Source: an uncultured Planctomycetaceae bacterium
GTDB lineage: Bacteria; Planctomycetota; Planctomycetia; Pirellulales; Thermoguttaceae
Reading direction: 5' to 3'
DNA length: 47,304 bases
Assembly: GCA_964576215.1 (NCBI GenBank)
Contig: CAZNVM010000142.1
Coordinates: 1 to 47,304 of the forward strand
Shown here: positions 716-46,334 of the stretch, piece by piece
How positions within the stretch are numbered: the stretch's first letter is position 1
How the letters are laid out: every line of letters starts with the position of its first letter
Translations under genes and position numbers: made by a program
The notes under the pieces: model-generated
The model's database searches: none
Seen by the model: the letters and a program-made list of their open reading frames with translations, nothing else
What the model was told of the DNA's origin: nothing

Positions 716-2158
716 ATGTCGTATGAAGTCGTCATGGGCCTGGAGGTTCACGTGGAACTGGCCACCGAATCGAAGCTGTTTTGCGGGTGCTCTGCCAAGT
801 TCGGGGCGGAGGCGAATGAGAATGTTTGTCCCGCTTGTGCCGGGATGCCGGGGATGCTGGCGGTGCTTAACAAGAAAGCGGTGGAACTGGGGATCGCCGC
901 CGGAATTGTTACCAACAGCGAAATTACGCCGAAAATCACGTTCGATAAAAAGAATTATTTTTACCCCGACCTGCCGGCCGGGTATCAGATCACCCAGTGG
1001 TTTGCCCCGATCTGCCGGAACGGTTGGGTGGAGATCGAAACCGAAGCGGACAAAAAAAGGATCACCCTCAAGCAGATTCATATCGAGGAAGACGCGGGGA
1101 AGTTGGTGCATGACACCAGGTCCGGAACGTCGCTGGTAGACTTTAACCGGACCTCGGTGCCGCTGGTGGAGATTGTGAGCAACCCGGACTTCCGGACGGC
1201 GGCGGAGGTGGTCGCTTACCTGGAAAAGTTGCGGTCGCTGTTGAGTTTTGCGGGCATTTCCGACTGCAAAATGCAGGAAGGGTCCATGCGGTGCGACGTG
1301 AATCTCTCCGTCCGCCCGGTCGGTTCGGACAAGCTGGGAACCCGCACCGAGATGAAGAACATGAACTCGCTTAAAGCGATTGCCGCCGCGATTGCTTACG
1401 AGTCGCAACGGCATATTGACGCCCTGGAAACGAAAAGCGAGGTTTTAGTACAGGAAACCCGTGGTTGGAATGACACCAAGGGGGAAACCTTTTCCATGCG
1501 AGGCAAGGAAGACGCGACCGACTACCGGTACTTCCCCAACCCGGAGATTATGCCGGTTGTGATCGACGCAAAGTGGATTGACACCATTCGAGCGTCATTA
1601 CCCGAAACGGCGGACGCCAAGTTTCAGCGGTTGACGCAGGAGTTGAGCTTGTCGGAATATGACACCAAAATCATCACCGGCAGTCAAAGGCTTTCCCGTA
1701 TTTTTGACGAAGCGACGCGGCACTTCAACAAGCCGAAGGAGGTCGCCAACTGGATCATCGTCGAACTGCTCGCCATTGCCAAAGGGGACAACAAAGGGGA
1801 GGACGATATTGAGATCGATTGCCAAAAGTTTGCCAAGCTGATGGAACTGGTGGACCGCAAGACGATCAACCGCAACGTGGGGAAAAAGTTGCTTGCGTTG
1901 GTGCTCAAGGAAAACATTGATCCTGCCCTCCACGTCGAGGAGAACAAGCTCGGCATGGTCAGCGATACCGAAGCGATCCGTGAAGCCGTTCAGACGGTTT
2001 TGTCGGAAAATCCGAAGTCGGTCAACGATTACAAAAGCGGCAACCAAAAAGCAATCGGGTTCCTTGTCGGTCAAATTATGAAAAAACTGGGCGGAAAAGC
2101 GGACCCACAGATTGTCAATCGTCTGCTTGTCGAAAACCTCGCCGGACCGCCCTTTTAG
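716..2158 (+). CDS. gatB: Asp-tRNA(Asn)/Glu-tRNA(Gln) amidotransferase subunit B
   Basis: 480-aa ORF. The N-terminus MSYEVVMGLEVHVEL...KLFCGC...CPVC-like motif and the C-terminal YqeY-like tail (GFLVGQIMKKLGGKADP) are characteristic of GatB. Confidence 0.95.
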   Translation: MSYEVVMGLEVHVELATESKLFCGCSAKFGAEANENVCPACAGMPGMLAVLNKKAVELGIAAGIVTNSEITPKITFDKKNYFYPDLPAGYQITQWFAPICRNGWVEIETEADKKRITLKQIHIEEDAGKLVHDTRSGTSLVDFNRTSVPLVEIVSNPDFRTAAEVVAYLEKLRSLLSFAGISDCKMQEGSMRCDVNLSVRPVGSDKLGTRTEMKNMNSLKAIAAAIAYESQRHIDALETKSEVLVQETRGWNDTKGETFSMRGKEDATDYRYFPNPEIMPVVIDAKWIDTIRASLPETADAKFQRLTQELSLSEYDTKIITGSQRLSRIFDEATRHFNKPKEVANWIIVELLAIAKGDNKGEDDIEIDCQKFAKLMELVDRKTINRNVGKKLLALVLKENIDPALHVEENKLGMVSDTEAIREAVQTVLSENPKSVNDYKSGNQKAIGFLVGQIMKKLGGKADPQIVNRLLVENLAGPPF

Positions 2159-3350: not shown

Positions 3351-3552
3351 GGTAATTGAGTGGTTGGAAGATTCATTTCATGGCGTTGGCGGGACCTGAC
3401 CGCCAAACGCAACAGCCAAGAGTATAACAGAAACCATCGGACCGGGCAATAAGATGGGTTTTTATTCGGCGGTGGAAAAAGAATAACAGAGCCGCACTCG
3501 TAAGATTGCGAGAAAACCAACGCAATATTACGACTGCGGCTCTGTTAATTCA

Positions 3553-10755: not shown

Positions 10756-10862
10756 AACCCAATCAGAACCACGCACAATCAGAGCCGCGCACGGAGTAAG
10801 CGGTGCCCCCGGTGGTAGCGTGAAAACCGCTTACTCCGTGCGCGGCTCTGATTGTACGCGGT
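10756..10862. repeat. palindromic element copy 1 (30-bp perfect stem, 21-nt loop)
   Basis: acaatcagagccgcgcacggagtaagcggt (10775-10804), loop gcccccggtggtagcgtgaaa, accgcttactccgtgcgcggctctgattgt (10826-10855). A degenerate caatcagaacc unit lies upstream. Confidence 0.9.
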
Positions 10863-10873
10863 TGGAATTTCTT

Positions 10874-20114: not shown

Positions 20115-20276
20115 GCACAATCAGAGCCGCGTACAATCAGAGCCGCGCACAATCAGAGCCGCGCACGGAGTAAGCGGTTTTCACGTTGCCACCGGGGTCA
20201 CCGCTTACTCTGTGCGCGGCTCTGATTGGGTTCACGGTTGGCGAAAATGTTGCCTCATTGGCGTTGAATAGTATAC
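20115..20276. repeat. palindromic element copy 2 (inverted loop orientation, left-arm 15-mer triplicated) plus conserved right extension
   Basis: (c/a)acaatcagagccgcg(t/c) x3, then stem acaatcagagccgcgcacggagtaagcgg / ccgcttactctgtgcgcggctctgattg, then gggttcacggttggcgaaaatgttgcctcattggcgttgaatagtatac. Confidence 0.9.
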
Positions 20277-24194: not shown

Positions 24195-24327
24195 ACAATC
24201 AGAGCCGCGCACGAAGTAAGCGGTAACCCCGGTGGTAACGTGAAAACCGCTCAATTGCTCCGTACGCGGCTCTGATTGGGTTTACGGTTATCGAAAAATG
24301 GCAACTGATTGGCGTTGAATAGTATAC
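24195..24327. repeat. palindromic element copy 3 (right arm disrupted) plus conserved right extension
   Basis: acaatcagagccgcgcacgaagtaagcggt aaccccggtggtaacgtgaaa accgctCAATTGctccgtacgcggctctgattg, then gggtttacggttatcgaaaaatggcaactgattggcgttgaatagtatac. Confidence 0.85.
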
Positions 24328-25909: not shown

Positions 25910-28327
25910 ATGGCCAGAAACGAAACCGTTTGGGGAATCGACATAGGCAGTACGTCGCTTAAGGCACTCCACTGCCGCGAGTCGTCCGAGCCGGGCAAAA
26001 TCGAAGTGATCGGCTTCGATTTCATCGAACACTCGAAAATCATGTCGCAACCGGGTGCGGAACCGGCGGAAATCCTCGTTGAAACCCTCAAGGAATTCCT
26101 TGCCCGAAACAACACCAGTGGGAGCAGGGTCGCGATCTCCGTTTCCGGGCAAAACACGATTTCCCGCTTTCTTCCGCTTCCTCCGGTCGATGTAAAAAAA
26201 GTTCCGGACATTATCAAATACGAAGCGAAACAGTGGTTGCCGTTCGACCTTCAAGACGTGATCTGGGACTACCAGCCGCTTGGAAAAGGACTTCCTCCTT
26301 CCGGTCTCGTACTCGATGCCACCGTCGGTATGTTTGCGATGAAACGGGACATCGCCATGAAAGCCATCACCCCTTATATCGATTTGGGGATTGATGTGGA
26401 TTGCATCCAGAGTTCGCAACTCGCCGTCTATAATTACGCCGCTTTCGACCAGCTCAATGTCGAAGAAATCGATCCCGACAATCCGCCGGACCAAGTCGTT
26501 ATTCTCAGCGTCGGGACCGACGCAACCGACGTTATTGTTACCAACGGCGTAACCATCTGGACCCGAAGCATTCCCATTGGCGGAAACTCCTTTACCAAGG
26601 CGATGACCAAGTCCTTGAAATTGACGTTTGCCAAAGCGGAGTACCTCAAGCGGAATCCGACGTCCGGCGACGATCCCAAGGCGGTGATCCAGGCGATGCG
26701 CTCGGTTTTCAACGATATGCTCAGTGAAGTCCAGCGTTCGTTGGAGTATTATTCGAGTTTGAATCGTAAAGCCAAGTTCACGAAAATACTGGCATTGGGG
26801 AACGCCTTGAAACTTCCCGGACTGCAACGGTTCCTGGGGGACAACCTTTCACTGGAAATGGTTCGACCGACTCTTTTCAACCGCTTGATCGGTTCCGAAG
26901 TGCTTGCGTCCCCGGTTTTCAAGGAAAACCTCAGCTCTTTCGGCGTCGCTTACGGTTTGGTAACGCAACTTCTTGGGGAATCGTCGCTCTCGACCAATTT
27001 GATGCCGAAGGAAGTCGTGATTGAACGAATCATTCAGGAAAAGAAACCGTGGGTTCTTGTGGCGGCGGCGTCCTTCCTGCTCGGTTTGACCATTGCGTAT
27101 TCCGGTGCGACCGGGGCTTTGGAATCGGTCAAACGCGGCGAATACGGCACGGCGGAAACAAAGGCGTCTTCTGTGGAATCGGCGTCGAGTCGATTGACCA
27201 GCGATGCGAAGACGAGTGCCGACGAATTCGTGAAAGTCGATAATGTCGGGAAAAACCTGACTGGCAGCGTGGAAGGACGGATTATATGGCTGGAATTTTT
27301 CAAAGCTCTTAATAGTGCTTTGCCAGCGGACCAGAATTTCGGTGCGGCGATGCTTCCCGAACAGCCGGAAGAACGGGCCAAAGCCATCTCCAAACAAAAC
27401 CGGATCTACATCACGGGTATTGATACGCTTAAAATCAGTGACGCCGCTCCCTGGTGGGCGAGAGTCAAAGAAGAACGCTGGTACACGCCCTCGCAGGAGG
27501 AACTTGATGAAGTAAAAAAAGCAAGTGGCGGCGGGGACTCCGATAGCGCAGGCTCTGTTTCCATCGGGGGGGGAGAAGGGGGGGAAAAGGCCATTCTGGA
27601 TTCTTTGCCCGGTCCACCGTCAGGCGTTCCGTGCCGATTGGTACAACTCACGGGATACCATTATCACAACGACGAGAAGGATCAGGTGATGTATGCGGGA
27701 AACTACCTTCGCCTAACGATTTGCGAGACGATCCGAACCGGCAGTGTAATCTTGCCCGTCAGTCTGGAACGTCAAATTGAAACCGGGTTGACAGATCAGG
27801 AGGAAGTAACGTTTAAGGAACTCGGTTTTATGTATCCCGTCGTTATCTTCCCGTCGAAACCGGAACGGATCACAATATTGGATCCCAAAGCCGTTCTGGA
27901 ACAGGAAAACAAATACCGATTGGAACAGCTCCGGAGAAATTCAGGTTCCCGAGGGGTTGACAATACAAGTGCTATGTATTCGGGAGGTTCCGTTCCCGCC
28001 AACATGGTGGGAAGCTCCCCTCGCGGCCCCATCGGTTCCGGTGGCGGCAGACTTGGAAGCGACGCGAACCTCGACAAAATCGCCGGTGACCTTAGTGACG
28101 ATCAAAAACTCAGAGACATTTCCGTTTACAATTTCGTTATTCAATTCATCTGGGTGGAAACGCCTCCGAGCGAACGGGACCGAATCAAAAAAGAAAAAAA
28201 ACAATCTGAGGAACAAGTTGTAAACAGTGCAACAGATACGTTGGGCACCGACGGCACAGGTACCCTGTCACCTGATCCCACGGAAGTCGTGCCGCAGGAG
28301 AATGTCCCGGAAGAAGCCGCATTATAG
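25910..28327 (+). CDS. PilM-PilN-like (GspL-like architecture) fusion protein with long C-terminal extension
   Basis: The N-terminus has an actin-like ATPase fold signature of PilM (WGIDIGSTSLKAL ... ILSVGTDATDVIV ... IPIGGNSFTKA). Then NLMPKEV + TM (PWVLVAAASFLLGLTIAYSG, about 27045-27110) as in PilN. The last 330 aa or so have no family I recognise and include Gly-rich low complexity. Confidence 0.8.
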   Translation: MARNETVWGIDIGSTSLKALHCRESSEPGKIEVIGFDFIEHSKIMSQPGAEPAEILVETLKEFLARNNTSGSRVAISVSGQNTISRFLPLPPVDVKKVPDIIKYEAKQWLPFDLQDVIWDYQPLGKGLPPSGLVLDATVGMFAMKRDIAMKAITPYIDLGIDVDCIQSSQLAVYNYAAFDQLNVEEIDPDNPPDQVVILSVGTDATDVIVTNGVTIWTRSIPIGGNSFTKAMTKSLKLTFAKAEYLKRNPTSGDDPKAVIQAMRSVFNDMLSEVQRSLEYYSSLNRKAKFTKILALGNALKLPGLQRFLGDNLSLEMVRPTLFNRLIGSEVLASPVFKENLSSFGVAYGLVTQLLGESSLSTNLMPKEVVIERIIQEKKPWVLVAAASFLLGLTIAYSGATGALESVKRGEYGTAETKASSVESASSRLTSDAKTSADEFVKVDNVGKNLTGSVEGRIIWLEFFKALNSALPADQNFGAAMLPEQPEERAKAISKQNRIYITGIDTLKISDAAPWWARVKEERWYTPSQEELDEVKKASGGGDSDSAGSVSIGGGEGGEKAILDSLPGPPSGVPCRLVQLTGYHYHNDEKDQVMYAGNYLRLTICETIRTGSVILPVSLERQIETGLTDQEEVTFKELGFMYPVVIFPSKPERITILDPKAVLEQENKYRLEQLRRNSGSRGVDNTSAMYSGGSVPANMVGSSPRGPIGSGGGRLGSDANLDKIAGDLSDDQKLRDISVYNFVIQFIWVETPPSERDRIKKEKKQSEEQVVNSATDTLGTDGTGTLSPDPTEVVPQENVPEEAAL

Positions 28328-34946: not shown

Positions 34947-36424
34947 TTACTTCCGCCGTCGAGCAACGAAACCTGCGCCGATTGCGCCGAGGCCGAGCAC
35001 CAGTAGCGTTGCCGGTTCCGGGGTCGTGCTGGGATCGTCGCCGAGGTACGAAAGCGTCAACACGTTACCGTTCCACGTCCATTCAAAACCGGTCTCCTCG
35101 AAACTGGACATGTTAAAATCGAAATTCCCCCAGCCGCTCGTTTTGCCTGTGGCGAGGAACAAATCGGACATATCGTACACTTGACTCCATCCGTCCAGCG
35201 GTGTCACCGAATCGCCCCAGTACAAATCGAGCGCGGCCTTGTTGCCGAACGTGAGATTGCCGAGAACGGAAATGATACCAGAGGTGAAATCTTCGAGACC
35301 GAGGCCAACGTACATCGTGCCGTTGAACGTAACTCCCTGTGCCGCCGCGAGTTCCAGTACGCCGCCGCTGTTGATTCCGACGTTACCGTTCACCGTGATC
35401 GTGTTCGCTTGAATTTTATTCGTGCTGGCATCGGTCAAAAGCGTTGCCCATTGGCCAAGCGTGAAAGTACCAACGTCGTTAGCGGCACCGTAGACAACGT
35501 TGCCTCTCAACTGTAGTTCGCCGTAACCGACGGTGGTGTTTAGAACTTGACTGTAACGATCAACGTCTCGAGTATAGTCGGAACCATCGAACACGACTCT
35601 GCCGGTGTCCGTTGCCCGATTGTTGATTTGTACATAGTTTTGACCCATTACAATCGGATCATAGAAGTAAATGCTCTGTCCTTCTCCAGCATTAAATACT
35701 GTATTGTAGTATCCAGCAAATTCCGCGTGGATGGCATTGGCTTTTTCATTAGCGGTGCCGACTCTATCTCTGTTTCCTCGGAATGTAATATCGCCGTTTG
35801 TTGCCATGAGGACGACTTGTCCTTCATCGGTGTAAATCGCCCCGCCTAGGCCGTTTGTCGAATTATTGGTAAACGTGTTTGTTCCGCCCGAAAGTACAAC
35901 GTGGTAACTTCCAATCGCCCCGCCACCGTACCGCGCTGAATTGCCGGTAAATGTGTTCGTCCCGCCGGAAAGAGTGAGATAGGTGCTGCTTGCAATCGCC
36001 CCGCCCATGCCGTTTGCCGAGTTATTGGTAAACGTGTTTGTTCCGCCCGAAAGTACAACATTGTTACCGCAAAACACCCCGCCATCATCATTCCATTGAA
36101 AATTTCTGAACTCTAGTGAATTGGAGTCCAACGTAATGTTTCCTGAACTGTACATAATGTTGGAATTAGAAGCGGCAGGGCGGATGACTCCCGAACCTTT
36201 GAAGGTAAGTGAGGCAACACCAAACCTACGGGTCAGCGAATTGTCATCGCCGTTCAAGATGATGGTGTCGCCACTTTGGAGAACTCCTGTTGCCGTGCGG
36301 AGAGCTTCAAGATTTGCGTAAGAACCACCGGGGCCGACGGTGTATTCGGCGGCTGTTAAGATCGGGGGGGGGGGGAAAATAGGCAAGCTGCGGCGATTGC
36401 CAGCAGAAGTCGTTTGGTTGTCAT
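34947..36424 (-). CDS. PEP-CTERM-anchored protein with Pmp-type (GGAI / FxxN) repeats; reading frame interrupted at a G12 tract
   Basis: Body ORF 34947-36386 has FTNNSANGMGGAI, FTGNSARYGGGAI and FTNNSTNGLGGAI, with C-terminal PEPATLLVLGLGAIGAGFVARRRK. A signal-peptide ORF (ATG at 36424, MTTKRLLLAIAAACLFSPPP) runs into the homopolymer in another frame. One extra G would fuse the two. Confidence 0.8.
36364..36375. repeat. homopolymeric G12 (C12 on coding strand) tract
   Basis: Counted directly: atc + 12 g + aaaat. Confidence 0.95.
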
Positions 36425-36485
36425 CTTGGTGTTTCTTCCTTCCGGTCGTCGGAGAAAAGGGTTGTGGGTCGGTCCGTCACAGAGC

Positions 36486-36531
36486 CGCAATCGTGAGATT
36501 GCGTTGGTTTTCGCGCAATCTCACGATTGCG
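36486..36531. promoter_or_regulatory. paired 18-bp palindromes CGCAATC-N4-GATTGCG upstream of the Pmp/PEP-CTERM gene (candidate operator or 5' hairpin)
   Basis: cgcaatcgtgagattgcg (36486-36503) and cgcaatctcacgattgcg (36514-36531) are exact reverse complements of each other, and each is itself a 7-4-7 palindrome. They lie 62-107 nt upstream of the ATG at 36424. Confidence 0.5.
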
Positions 36532-36664
36532 TCTCTGTTTTCGGGCTGGCGGTGCTCTTTTCCCTCGAAAACGCTTCGAGGACACACCACCGTTAATTCT
36601 ATTTTAATCGGAACCGAAAAAAAATCAAGGGAAAAATCGGAAAAATTTCGCTAATTGGCGGAAC

Positions 36665-36760
36665 GCACAATCAGAGCCATACAATCAGAGCCGCGCACGC
36701 AGTAAGCGGTGACCCCGGTGGTAACGTGAAAACCGCTTACTGCGTGCGCGGCTCTGATTG
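36665..36760. repeat. palindromic element copy 4
   Basis: cacaatcagagccat + acaatcagagccgcgcacGCagtaagcggt (36681-36710), loop gaccccggtggtaacgtgaaa, accgcttactGCgtgcgcggctctgattg (36732-36760). Confidence 0.9.
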
Positions 36761-36819
36761 GGCGCGGTTCGTTGAGGTTCACGTAATCGATCAGACGCGA
36801 CCGCCGGGGCGTCGGTTGC

Positions 36820-39061: not shown

Positions 39062-39143
39062 GGTAACGTGAAAACCGCTTACTGCGTGCGCGGCTCTGAT
39101 TGTACGCGGCTCTGATTGTACGCGGCTCTGATTGGGTTCACGG
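39062..39143. repeat. palindromic element copy 5 (half element: loop plus right arm, terminal 15-mer triplicated)
   Basis: ggtaacgtgaaa accgcttactgcgtgcgcggctctgattg tacgcggctctgattg tacgcggctctgattg ggttcacgg. No left arm is present. A further degenerate unit lies at about 39180-39200. Confidence 0.85.
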
Positions 39144-45113: not shown

Positions 45114-46280
45114 CTAAGCGGTACACTTCACAACGTATCGCGGATTGATGACCGCCGGTGTGCCGCGTTCGCTGGCTTTGAACCGGACCACGATGTCCTG
45201 CGTGAAATCCGCTTCGCTGCCGAGCGGTGATTGCGTAACGGTAATCGGCCAGTTCTCCATGTAGGCAAACGCCTTTTGGAAGTTGCCGAGAAACCAGTAT
45301 CCCGCCGCATTGGTCGCTGTGACGCCACTATCGAGAAGACGCCGGTAAGCCAACCGGCTTGCCACGACCTTGTAACGGGTATACGGATTCGGAATCGCCG
45401 ACATGGTCGTTTCGCCGGAAGCGGAATAGGATACTTCCGACGCATGGAACAAGCGGTGCGCGATACCACGCTTTTGCGGCATCACAAGCACGGCGTCCGG
45501 CTCCACCAAAATCGGGTCTTTCGTCATGGGATCAAGCATGTTGGCGAAGAGATTCTCCGCTTTTTCCAGGCTTTCCCAACCGACGAGTGGGTTTGACGCC
45601 ACCGCATTGATGTAAGGATCGTTCGTCCCGGTGCAATAGGTGTTGTAGGCGTTCCCTTTCCATTTGAAGGTATTGGTGATACCAAGCACGACGTCGAGAA
45701 TCCGCTTTTCCTTGTTGATGGCAAGCACTTCACCGACCTCGGCGGCACGACTCAAAATGAGGTGCGTCCGGTCGAAGAAAATCGCCTCTTTCGTTACCGG
45801 AACGATCAAACCGTGCTTTCTCGTGTTCGGCGTCTCCACGTAATCCTCGGAAAATCCGACGTTCGGGTACGGCATCCCGGGATGGATCGAACGTGCGGTA
45901 TCAGCAATTCCGGTCGTGCCGGGAATCTTTTCGCCGTCAAGCCGCGTTGAGATCGTTTCGACCAGTTTGGACAGAGCAAACGCCTCCCGATTGTACGACT
46001 CGAGAATCTTGTTGTAAATGATCTGACTTGTGACACCAAGGAACGCCGTCGGGTCGATCCCCTCACCTTCCAGCAAAACGGTGCCACTTCCCGACCGGGG
46101 ATCAAGTTCCCGAATCCAATGGTGGCCGCCTGGTATCAACGCCTCGGCAAGCTCGCGGATACTGAAATCCTCGCCTCGCAACTCCTTTTTCGAGAGTGCC
46201 TCGCTCAGATGCCGGATCGTTTTTTCCGCACCGTCCGATTCGAAACGCTTTCGTAATTCCCTGTATTTGATTGTACTCAC
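45114..46280 (-). CDS. phage major capsid protein (HK97-fold, lambda E / decoration-partnered type, inference)
   Basis: ORF of about 388 aa. The likely start is GTG at 46280, with AAGGAGA 6 nt upstream (the track starts at TTG 46298). Size, position after a decoration-like gene and overall pattern fit a major capsid protein. Confidence 0.7.
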   Translation of the reverse strand: MSTIKYRELRKRFESDGAEKTIRHLSEALSKKELRGEDFSIRELAEALIPGGHHWIRELDPRSGSGTVLLEGEGIDPTAFLGVTSQIIYNKILESYNREAFALSKLVETISTRLDGEKIPGTTGIADTARSIHPGMPYPNVGFSEDYVETPNTRKHGLIVPVTKEAIFFDRTHLILSRAAEVGEVLAINKEKRILDVVLGITNTFKWKGNAYNTYCTGTNDPYINAVASNPLVGWESLEKAENLFANMLDPMTKDPILVEPDAVLVMPQKRGIAHRLFHASEVSYSASGETTMSAIPNPYTRYKVVASRLAYRRLLDSGVTATNAAGYWFLGNFQKAFAYMENWPITVTQSPLGSEADFTQDIVVRFKASERGTPAVINPRYVVKCTA

Positions 46281-46334
46281 TGTTGTTCTCCTTGTCAATT
46301 GAAATGGTGAAAGATGATGTGAAAGGTGTCACAA

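Follow-up and report, generated by a model that had tools for sequence, protein, structure and literature searches.

We find that a gene on the minus strand of a 47,304-nt contig from an uncultured Planctomycetaceae bacterium (CAZNVM010000142.1, assembly GCA_964576215.1; "the window" hereafter means this whole stretch) is interrupted by a run of 12 cytosines, which lies in the predicted signal-peptide coding part and puts the body of a PMP-repeat/PEP-CTERM protein out of frame. Based on the run and its flanks, on the same locus in other assemblies and on related genes, we propose that this locus is a contingency (phase-variable) gene with a slipped-strand on/off switch in its leader, and we put the probability of this reading at roughly three in four. 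An earlier note on this DNA had suggested slipped-strand phase variation, and the suggestion is supported by pairs of sequences in the on and off states, by the recurrence of such tracts in the gene family and by an intact body with a signature of selection. The observation extends from one gene to a gene family.

The homopolymer and the protein it interrupts

The run reads G12 on the forward strand and C12 on the coding minus strand (Table 1). Starting at ATG 36424, the minus-strand codons are ATG ACA ACC AAA CGA CTT CTG CTG GCA ATC GCC GCA GCT TGC, followed by CTA TTT TCC CCC CCC CCC CGA TCT TAA. The earlier note had claimed that the run splits the leader from the body, that translation stops three codons beyond it and that the body frame is reached by +1 or -2 nt. 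Sequence and open reading frame (ORF) reading confirm all of this, coordinates included: CGA and TCT are the two sense codons between the last tract-derived Pro and TAA, and 13 or 10 C join the leader to the body. In simulated tracts, 10, 13 and 16 C give a fusion of leader and body of 491, 492 and 493 amino acids (aa), respectively; 9, 12 and 15 C give peptides of 21-23 aa, and 11 and 14 C peptides of 38-39 aa. The 22-aa peptide of the window state (MTTKRLLLAIAAACLFSPPPRS) comprises the n- and h-regions of a signal peptide and is the same in a second assembly of the locus (L001, described below).

The length of the tract is far above the chance expectation. It is the sole G/C run longer than 8 nt in the 47.3 kb, the next longest being 8, and only seven G/C runs of at least 6 nt occur in the window, whose G+C content is 51.9%. 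A G10 pattern matches only within the C12/G12 tract, and in 100 dinucleotide-preserving shuffles (mean 0.08 matches) the observed count was reached in 0/100.

Translation probably begins at ATG 36424 and not at the TTG at 36386 that opens the body ORF, because a Shine-Dalgarno-like motif precedes the ATG, as it does in sister genes: AAGGA(A) motifs stand at similar spacing before the signal-peptide ATG in four of them (L004, L006, L008 and L010). The nominal TTG start falls within the leader, in a different frame. We rejected it as a genuine start, since it would yield a leaderless PEP-CTERM protein and lacks a Shine-Dalgarno-like motif.

In the repaired protein, in which leader and body are joined, both domain assignments of the earlier note are borne out by scores above curated cut-offs: the PMP repeat is found in two stretches (PF02415, 26.5 bits versus a cut-off of 20.6; TIGR01376, 22.4 versus 15), and the PEP-CTERM sorting signal at the C-terminus (PEPATLLVLGLGAIGAGFVARRRK) scores 28.2 bits versus 20.7 (PF07589) and 24.1 versus 16 (TIGR02595). 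Neither a C-terminal autotransporter beta-barrel (PF03797) nor a Pmp middle domain (PF07548) was found in the gene product at E <= 0.1; the gene shares its repeat module with Pmp proteins and is not a Pmp autotransporter. A Sec signal peptide is present only in the tract-restored frame, and there it can be aligned to those of 15 homologues. A signal-peptidase-I type site (..ILTA/AEYTVG, with cleavage at the slash after the invariant Ala25) is conserved in 16/16 aligned sequences, all of which carry an x-Y-T-V-G motif directly after the invariant Ala, and the mature protein starts at about AEYTVG. The same site bears on a further point of the earlier note, the possibly lipoprotein-like 'AAAC' of the leader. 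We rejected the lipoprotein reading: conservation in the family extends not to the Cys but to the signal-peptidase-I type site, ..A/A.YTVG.

The Pro residues encoded by the tract are residues 17-20 of the repaired protein, at the junction between the hydrophobic core and the cleavage region and five residues before the cleavage-site Ala. A Pro run at this position occurs in 0/15 of the aligned homologues, all of which have an ordinary Sec signal peptide; the tract is therefore a lineage-specific insertion in a cleaved, dispensable segment, where one Pro more or less should be tolerated.

The fold of the protein is predicted to be beta-solenoid-like or beta-helix-like. An AlphaFold2 model built on the 16-sequence alignment has good confidence (mean predicted local distance difference test score 81, predicted template modelling score 0.79). 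It is all-beta with many short strands, flanked by one helix at the N-terminus (3-15), which matches the signal-peptide core, and one at the C-terminus (471-491), which matches the PEP-CTERM anchor. A Foldseek search of the PDB returned nothing significant (best E = 0.28); right-handed beta-helix proteins (VacA p55, tailspikes, pectate and alginate lyases, pertactin, Hbp) make up nearly all of the top of its list, which we use qualitatively only.

About 40 homologues of the repaired protein were collected, nearly all from metagenomes or from Planctomycetaceae/Thermoguttaceae metagenome-assembled genomes (MAGs), and most have PEP-CTERM tails. In three more distant homologues with the same passenger region (P0033, P0034 and P0041), the autotransporter barrel PF03797 replaces PEP-CTERM, so that one beta-helix module is paired with two distinct ways of surface anchoring. 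A separate 282-aa protein on a 1.5-kb JGI contig (P0040) has an unrelated body and a 28-residue PEP-CTERM tail identical to that of the window protein (PSSTPEPATLLVLGLGAIGAGFVARRRK); the two are probably paralogues from one organism with a C-terminal module in common.

Variation at the locus and across the gene family

We looked for the same locus in other assemblies. The GlgX protein encoded upstream of the gene is encoded identically on two other contigs. A MEGAHIT contig in ENA assembly ERZ27257342 (L001) matches the window at 99.86% identity across 8.7 kb, so that the flanks differ by ~0.14%, and it carries the same leader with C12, likewise out of frame. About 190 nt into the gene this identity collapses: the repeat region is unalignable as DNA, and the C-terminal ~570 nt are 88% identical. 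The L001 body is a different allele with more repeats, and it matches a predicted protein from a 20.4-kb NCBI contig (P0002, 552 aa) at 491/491 comparable residues. P0002 runs uninterrupted from MTTKRLLLAIAAACLFSPPPPILTAAEY... through the tract (SPPPPI; ...CLFSPPPPILTAAEY...), which it reads in frame as Ser and four Pro, equivalent to 13 C by inference from the protein. On this comparison, one allele exists both out of frame (L001, C12) and in frame (P0002). A fourth version of the locus, P0044 from a JGI contig, has the window's allele as a 479-aa ORF, is of the off type as judged by that ORF and differs by one amino acid just before the prolines.

Exact-pattern scans of metagenome contigs with the upstream flank plus C9 and with the downstream flank gave no match; for the upstream pattern this is because P0044, which reads 'LPILPPPP', has at least one substitution beside the tract. 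Scans of genome contigs with the family alignment and then with P0002 returned spurious pattern matches only, and the 479-aa ORF product, P0002 and P0044 had no exact counterpart in the assembly index. Contigs end in or beside the gene in four assemblies (L001, L002, L003 and the contig of P0042), which is what co-existing alleles would cause during assembly.

The contrast between nearly invariant flanks and a diverged gene suggests that alleles at this surface-protein locus have undergone replacement or gene conversion. Codon-wise comparison of the window and L001 alleles gives a ratio of nonsynonymous to synonymous substitution rates (dN/dS) of 0.36 overall, 0.29 in the central part (dS 1.36) and 0.29 in the C-terminal part (dS 0.36), and neither allele has a lesion other than the tract. 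By these measures the body is under purifying selection and highly polymorphic, and is not a decaying pseudogene. A fixed pseudogene, that is a frameshift-inactivated gene in decay, would account for the out-of-frame state of the window, L001 and P0044, and a distant family member (P0036, below) does combine a C12 run with a second, tract-free frameshift. However, the only defect in the 479-aa body's gene sits exactly in a reversible tract, the second allele is intact despite a dS of up to 1.36, and P0002 is an in-frame version of the L001 allele. We regard a fixed pseudogene as highly improbable, and the two deeply diverged alleles with intact body ORFs contradict this alternative as the earlier note had framed it. 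The same note had named tractless relatives with stops accumulating in the body as the pattern that would speak against a switch; at the orthologous locus we find no such pattern. Its proposal to compare tract lengths in related strains could be followed in part, and the comparisons (L001 with P0002, the pair L004 and L005 described next, and further family tracts) favour a switch.

Tracts in the leader are not confined to this locus. For instance, P0020, a 45% identical homologue from another organism, is annotated from 'MAAEYTVGG' without a signal peptide, and further upstream its DNA has an ATG and codes for a signal peptide, with poly-G in the n-region. In one assembly of the P0020 gene (L004, JGI 3300010167) the run is G11, and ATG 1393 opens the full pre-protein in frame (MTSKFSQSVNIGNGGGGDVGSLALAVLFLFLSSATVMAAEYTVGG); in another (L005, ENA ERZ27257304) it is G12 and out of frame. 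L004 and L005 show 0 mismatches and 1 gap over 4,626 nt. The on and off states are thus found twice in near-identical sequences (L001/P0002 and L004/L005), all of them assembly consensus. At the homologous n-region position P0025 has G9 and P0018 has G11, both in frame, and the G9 tract is the same in the two assemblies that differ at G11/12. For P0009 and P0027 the contig starts within the tract, with G21 and G13, respectively, immediately upstream of the hydrophobic core; since the assemblies broke there, these lengths are unreliable. P0012 has no tract and serves as a negative control.

A more ambiguous case is P0036 (L011, 898..1010), in which C12 is followed by a PPPPILT motif in the body frame, as in the window gene. 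It needs C11 or C14 to join the upstream ATG and has a second body frameshift without a tract (L011, about 1940..1960), and it may be a true pseudogene. Its flank (..C12 TATTTTAACAT) is similar to that of the window gene (..C12 GATCTTAACAG), which hints at a common tract-bearing 5' module in these two genes.

Beyond P0020, four members have G/C runs of at least 9 nt in the leader region, or five with P0036. All eight G/C runs of at least 9 nt in 95.6 kb (the window plus L001-L010) lie at signal-peptide positions, and adding L011 and L012 makes this 10/10 in ~100 kb. The short leader accommodates two kinds of tract, poly-C (Pro, near the cleavage region) and poly-G (Gly, in the n-region), which speaks for mutability having been selected repeatedly and not for one accident of history. 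Roughly three quarters of the family, judged from protein N-termini, have no tract.

These tracts also leave a trace in annotation. Gene callers systematically truncate or mis-start family genes, among them P0001, P0020, P0009, P0027 and P0036 at internal ATG, GTG or TTG codons. Internal mis-starts after the tract lie at 1501 in L004/L005, 48 in L009, 60 in L012, 1001 in L011 and 36386 in the window. Database entries of the family are therefore often without signal peptides.

Could the frameshift in the window be a homopolymer miscall, with a true tract of 13 (or 10) C and a gene that is simply in frame? All sequences compared here are Illumina metagenome assemblies, in which long G/C homopolymers are error-prone and indel errors are raised. 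A single difference of 12 versus 13 or 11 versus 12 between assemblies could be a consensus artefact, and some pairs of JGI and ENA assemblies may be re-assemblies of the same reads. P0002 is an in-frame version of the L001 allele, with a tract length deduced from protein; L004 and L005 differ only at the tract, as if assemblers had resolved noisy reads differently; and two contigs end inside such tracts. Further points stand apart from base calling. Three of the four versions of the locus (window, L001 and P0044) are out of frame, and a fixed frameshift would look alike. The family members examined were chosen partly for odd N-termini, which biases the fraction with tracts upward. We infer that the protein is surface-exposed and adhesive, its location being read from domains only, and no exosortase (EpsH/Xrt) gene was found among the ten large window ORFs scanned. 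These points, and the risk of consensus artefacts, weigh against a phase-variable switch.

A miscall nevertheless fits poorly with several results. The length of 12 was read in the DNA of two assemblies that represent different strains and alleles (the window and L001), a third version (P0044) is of the off type by its ORF, and G9 is reproducible between two assemblies that differ at G11/12. Nor can a miscall explain the tracts themselves or their recurrence in paralogues. Recurrent runs of 12-13 nt would be hypermutable even if a call were off by one; the miscall explanation therefore bears on the on or off state of a given sequence and not on the nature of the element. We consider it unlikely that the frameshift is simply an artefact of this kind; most of the probability that we leave beside phase variation falls on a real tract whose particular length call is an artefact.

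An alternative to a mutational switch is recoding, in which C12 would be fixed and the full-length protein made by RNA-polymerase slippage or by -1 ribosomal frameshifting on C CCC CCC. The frame needed is exactly that reached by a -1 shift or by one extra base in the transcript, C12 is present in two alleles, and homopolymers of such length provoke transcriptional slippage in other bacteria. However, there is no stimulatory RNA structure downstream of the run (minimum free energy z = +0.89; 157/200 shuffles fold at least as well), and no Rfam element was found, only sub-threshold generic hairpin matches to two palindromic repeats. Of the features expected of a programmed frameshift, the slippery run is present; a conserved out-of-frame arrangement and a stimulatory element were not found. 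The off arrangement is not conserved, since DNA or ORFs show P0002, L004, P0025 and P0018 in frame, and the position and base of the tract vary among members, which fits a mutational switch. We find recoding very unlikely as the explanation for this locus.

Based on these data, we propose the following model for a phase-variable gene. A C12-13 homopolymer would have been inserted where the hydrophobic core of the signal peptide ends, and slipped-strand mispairing during replication would change the run by one nucleotide in either direction, at high frequency and reversibly. With 10, 13 or 16 C, signal peptide and body would share one frame and Sec would export the protein; cleavage at ..TA/AEY would remove the signal peptide together with its tract-encoded Pro, and an exosortase would sort the mature protein to the cell surface. 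With 12 C, the state of the window, translation would end after 22 codons and the protein would not be made. Since cleavage takes the tract away with the leader, the in-frame tract length would not affect the mature protein, which would carry no scar. The selective agent may be phage, grazers or host factors.

Features and neighbours in the window

The coordinates of the features discussed above are collected in Table 1.

Table 1. Features of the proposed phase-variable gene, in window coordinates.
Feature	Position	Strand	Basis
C12 homopolymer (proposed slipped-strand switch)	36364..36375	-	sequence, rarity, length-to-frame table, 12 versus in-frame within one allele
Off-state frame, ATG 36424 to TAA 36356-36358, 22 aa, MTTKRLLLAIAAACLFSPPPRS	36356..36424	-	translation
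Body ORF, 479 aa, nominal TTG start 36386, stop 34947-34949	34947..36386	-	ORF list, domains, AlphaFold2, dN/dS
Shine-Dalgarno-like GGAAGGAAG motif ahead of ATG 36424	36425..36445	-	45 nt upstream compared
Hypervariable part of the gene versus L001 (8737..10079)	34947..36231	-	L001 comparison, alleles of 492 versus 552 aa

The gene is monocistronic, its downstream neighbour lies in convergent orientation, and the neighbouring genes are housekeeping or unrelated: they encode a GlgX-type debranching enzyme, a squalene/phytoene synthase, ThiS, a PilM-like protein and a CAP/Calx-beta giant protein. The downstream neighbour has an exact copy on WQUB01000202.1 (GCA_009785975.1), an accession within the range deposited for 589 MAGs from the guts of higher termites, which were sequenced on Illumina HiSeq 2000/2500 (PMC7024585).

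Two dispersed repeats lie near the gene. The first, a palindromic intergenic repeat of ~88 nt that resembles repetitive extragenic palindromes or miniature inverted-repeat transposable elements, flanks glgX at 36681..36769 and recurs between genes in at least four further places, at 10775..10863, 20143..20228 and 24195..24280 and in part at 39062..39104 (89-94% identical). In Rfam it gave only a sub-threshold generic hairpin (mir-1271, 40.8 bits versus 80.5). The second, a 61-nt element at 36479..36539, ~55 nt upstream of the ATG of the gene, consists of two perfect 18-nt inverted repeats, and each of its arms is itself palindromic (CGCAATC-N4-GATTGCG). Its other copy at 3485..3545 is 88.5% identical, and we rejected the 18-nt inverted repeat as a gene-specific operator or attenuator since it belongs to a dispersed repeat.

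The second-longest G/C run of the window, G8 at 27566..27573 (+), falls in frame about midway through an 805-aa PilM-like ORF (25910..28327) and is probably too short and too deep in the gene for a switch. Lastly, an ORF at 45114..46298 (-) has a match to PF25209, a family of phage capsid proteins (E = 1.8e-12), and points to a prophage or phage-derived element near the right end of the window.

Comparison with known systems

Homopolymer contingency loci are textbook material for a few host-adapted pathogens and, within the Planctomycetes-Verrucomicrobia-Chlamydiae (PVC) superphylum, for the Pmp genes of Chlamydia. In Neisseria, Haemophilus, Campylobacter and Helicobacter, surface genes are switched by homopolymers and the switching has been measured experimentally. 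The opa genes of Neisseria carry CTCTT repeats in the region encoding the signal peptide, and the reading frame decides whether the mature surface protein is made. The locus described here resembles opa in that the repeat lies in the leader, the mature protein would be unaffected by the in-frame repeat number, and several genes could vary in combination. It differs in that opa uses a pentanucleotide repeat and encodes beta-barrel outer-membrane adhesins of host-restricted pathogens.

A full-text literature search found no report linking Planctomycetes or PEP-CTERM proteins with phase variation by simple sequence repeats. We view the system as ecologically suggestive and mechanistically unsurprising. 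Should the switch be real, uncultured termite-hindgut symbionts would combine stochastic on/off control of surface proteins with rapid allelic turnover, and the hindgut would impose strong fluctuating selection, for example through phage, protist grazing, attachment substrates or host factors. The distribution of tract lengths would then be a marker that can be read straight from metagenomic reads. Since such genes are mis-started or truncated and contigs break at them, MAG annotations under-report these surface proteins.

A partial parallel within the PVC superphylum is Akkermansia muciniphila (Verrucomicrobia), another gut-associated bacterium with PEP-CTERM proteins and an exosortase, in which long G/C runs in 17 genes have been proposed as phase-variation switches (PMC3048395). 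As described in the passages of that report on these runs, they lie in capsule and acyltransferase genes and not in PEP-CTERM genes, with no length polymorphism between assemblies reported there (PMC3048395).

The closest precedent is the PmpG group of Chlamydia. Its poly-G and poly-C tracts vary in length, go together with frameshifts that cut across the phylogeny and have been interpreted as slipped-strand phase variation, and in C. trachomatis the pmpG tract lies near the start of the gene (PMC6740158). The pmp16G gene of C. abortus was first called a pseudogene owing to a poly-G frameshift and was then found to be variable in sequencing reads (PMC3504296). Like the present family, the PmpG genes of C. 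pneumoniae, C. abortus and C. psittaci have G/C tracts, of about 10-24 nt, in genes that encode beta-helical surface proteins with PMP repeats; the likeness includes the GGAI/FxxN (PF02415) repeats, membership of the PVC superphylum, multi-member paralogous families and polymorphic repeat regions. The differences are equally plain. The protein described here has a PEP-CTERM/exosortase signal, without the PF03797 barrel or the Pmp middle domain, its tract interrupts the part coding for the signal peptide whereas those of Chlamydia mostly lie mid-gene, and it comes from an uncultured termite-gut planctomycete whereas Chlamydia is an intracellular pathogen. As a tentative extension, which we hold as possible and short of probable, termite-gut planctomycetes might carry a "phasome" of PEP-CTERM-anchored PMP-repeat beta-helix proteins, each with its own leader tract. 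If so, tract switching and the replacement of repeat-region alleles would together let an uncultured, non-pathogenic gut symbiont vary its surface in a combinatorial way. The pairing of a PMP-repeat adhesin with a G/C tract would then be ancestral to the PVC superphylum or have evolved repeatedly within it, and would extend well outside the chlamydial host-pathogen setting in which it was discovered.

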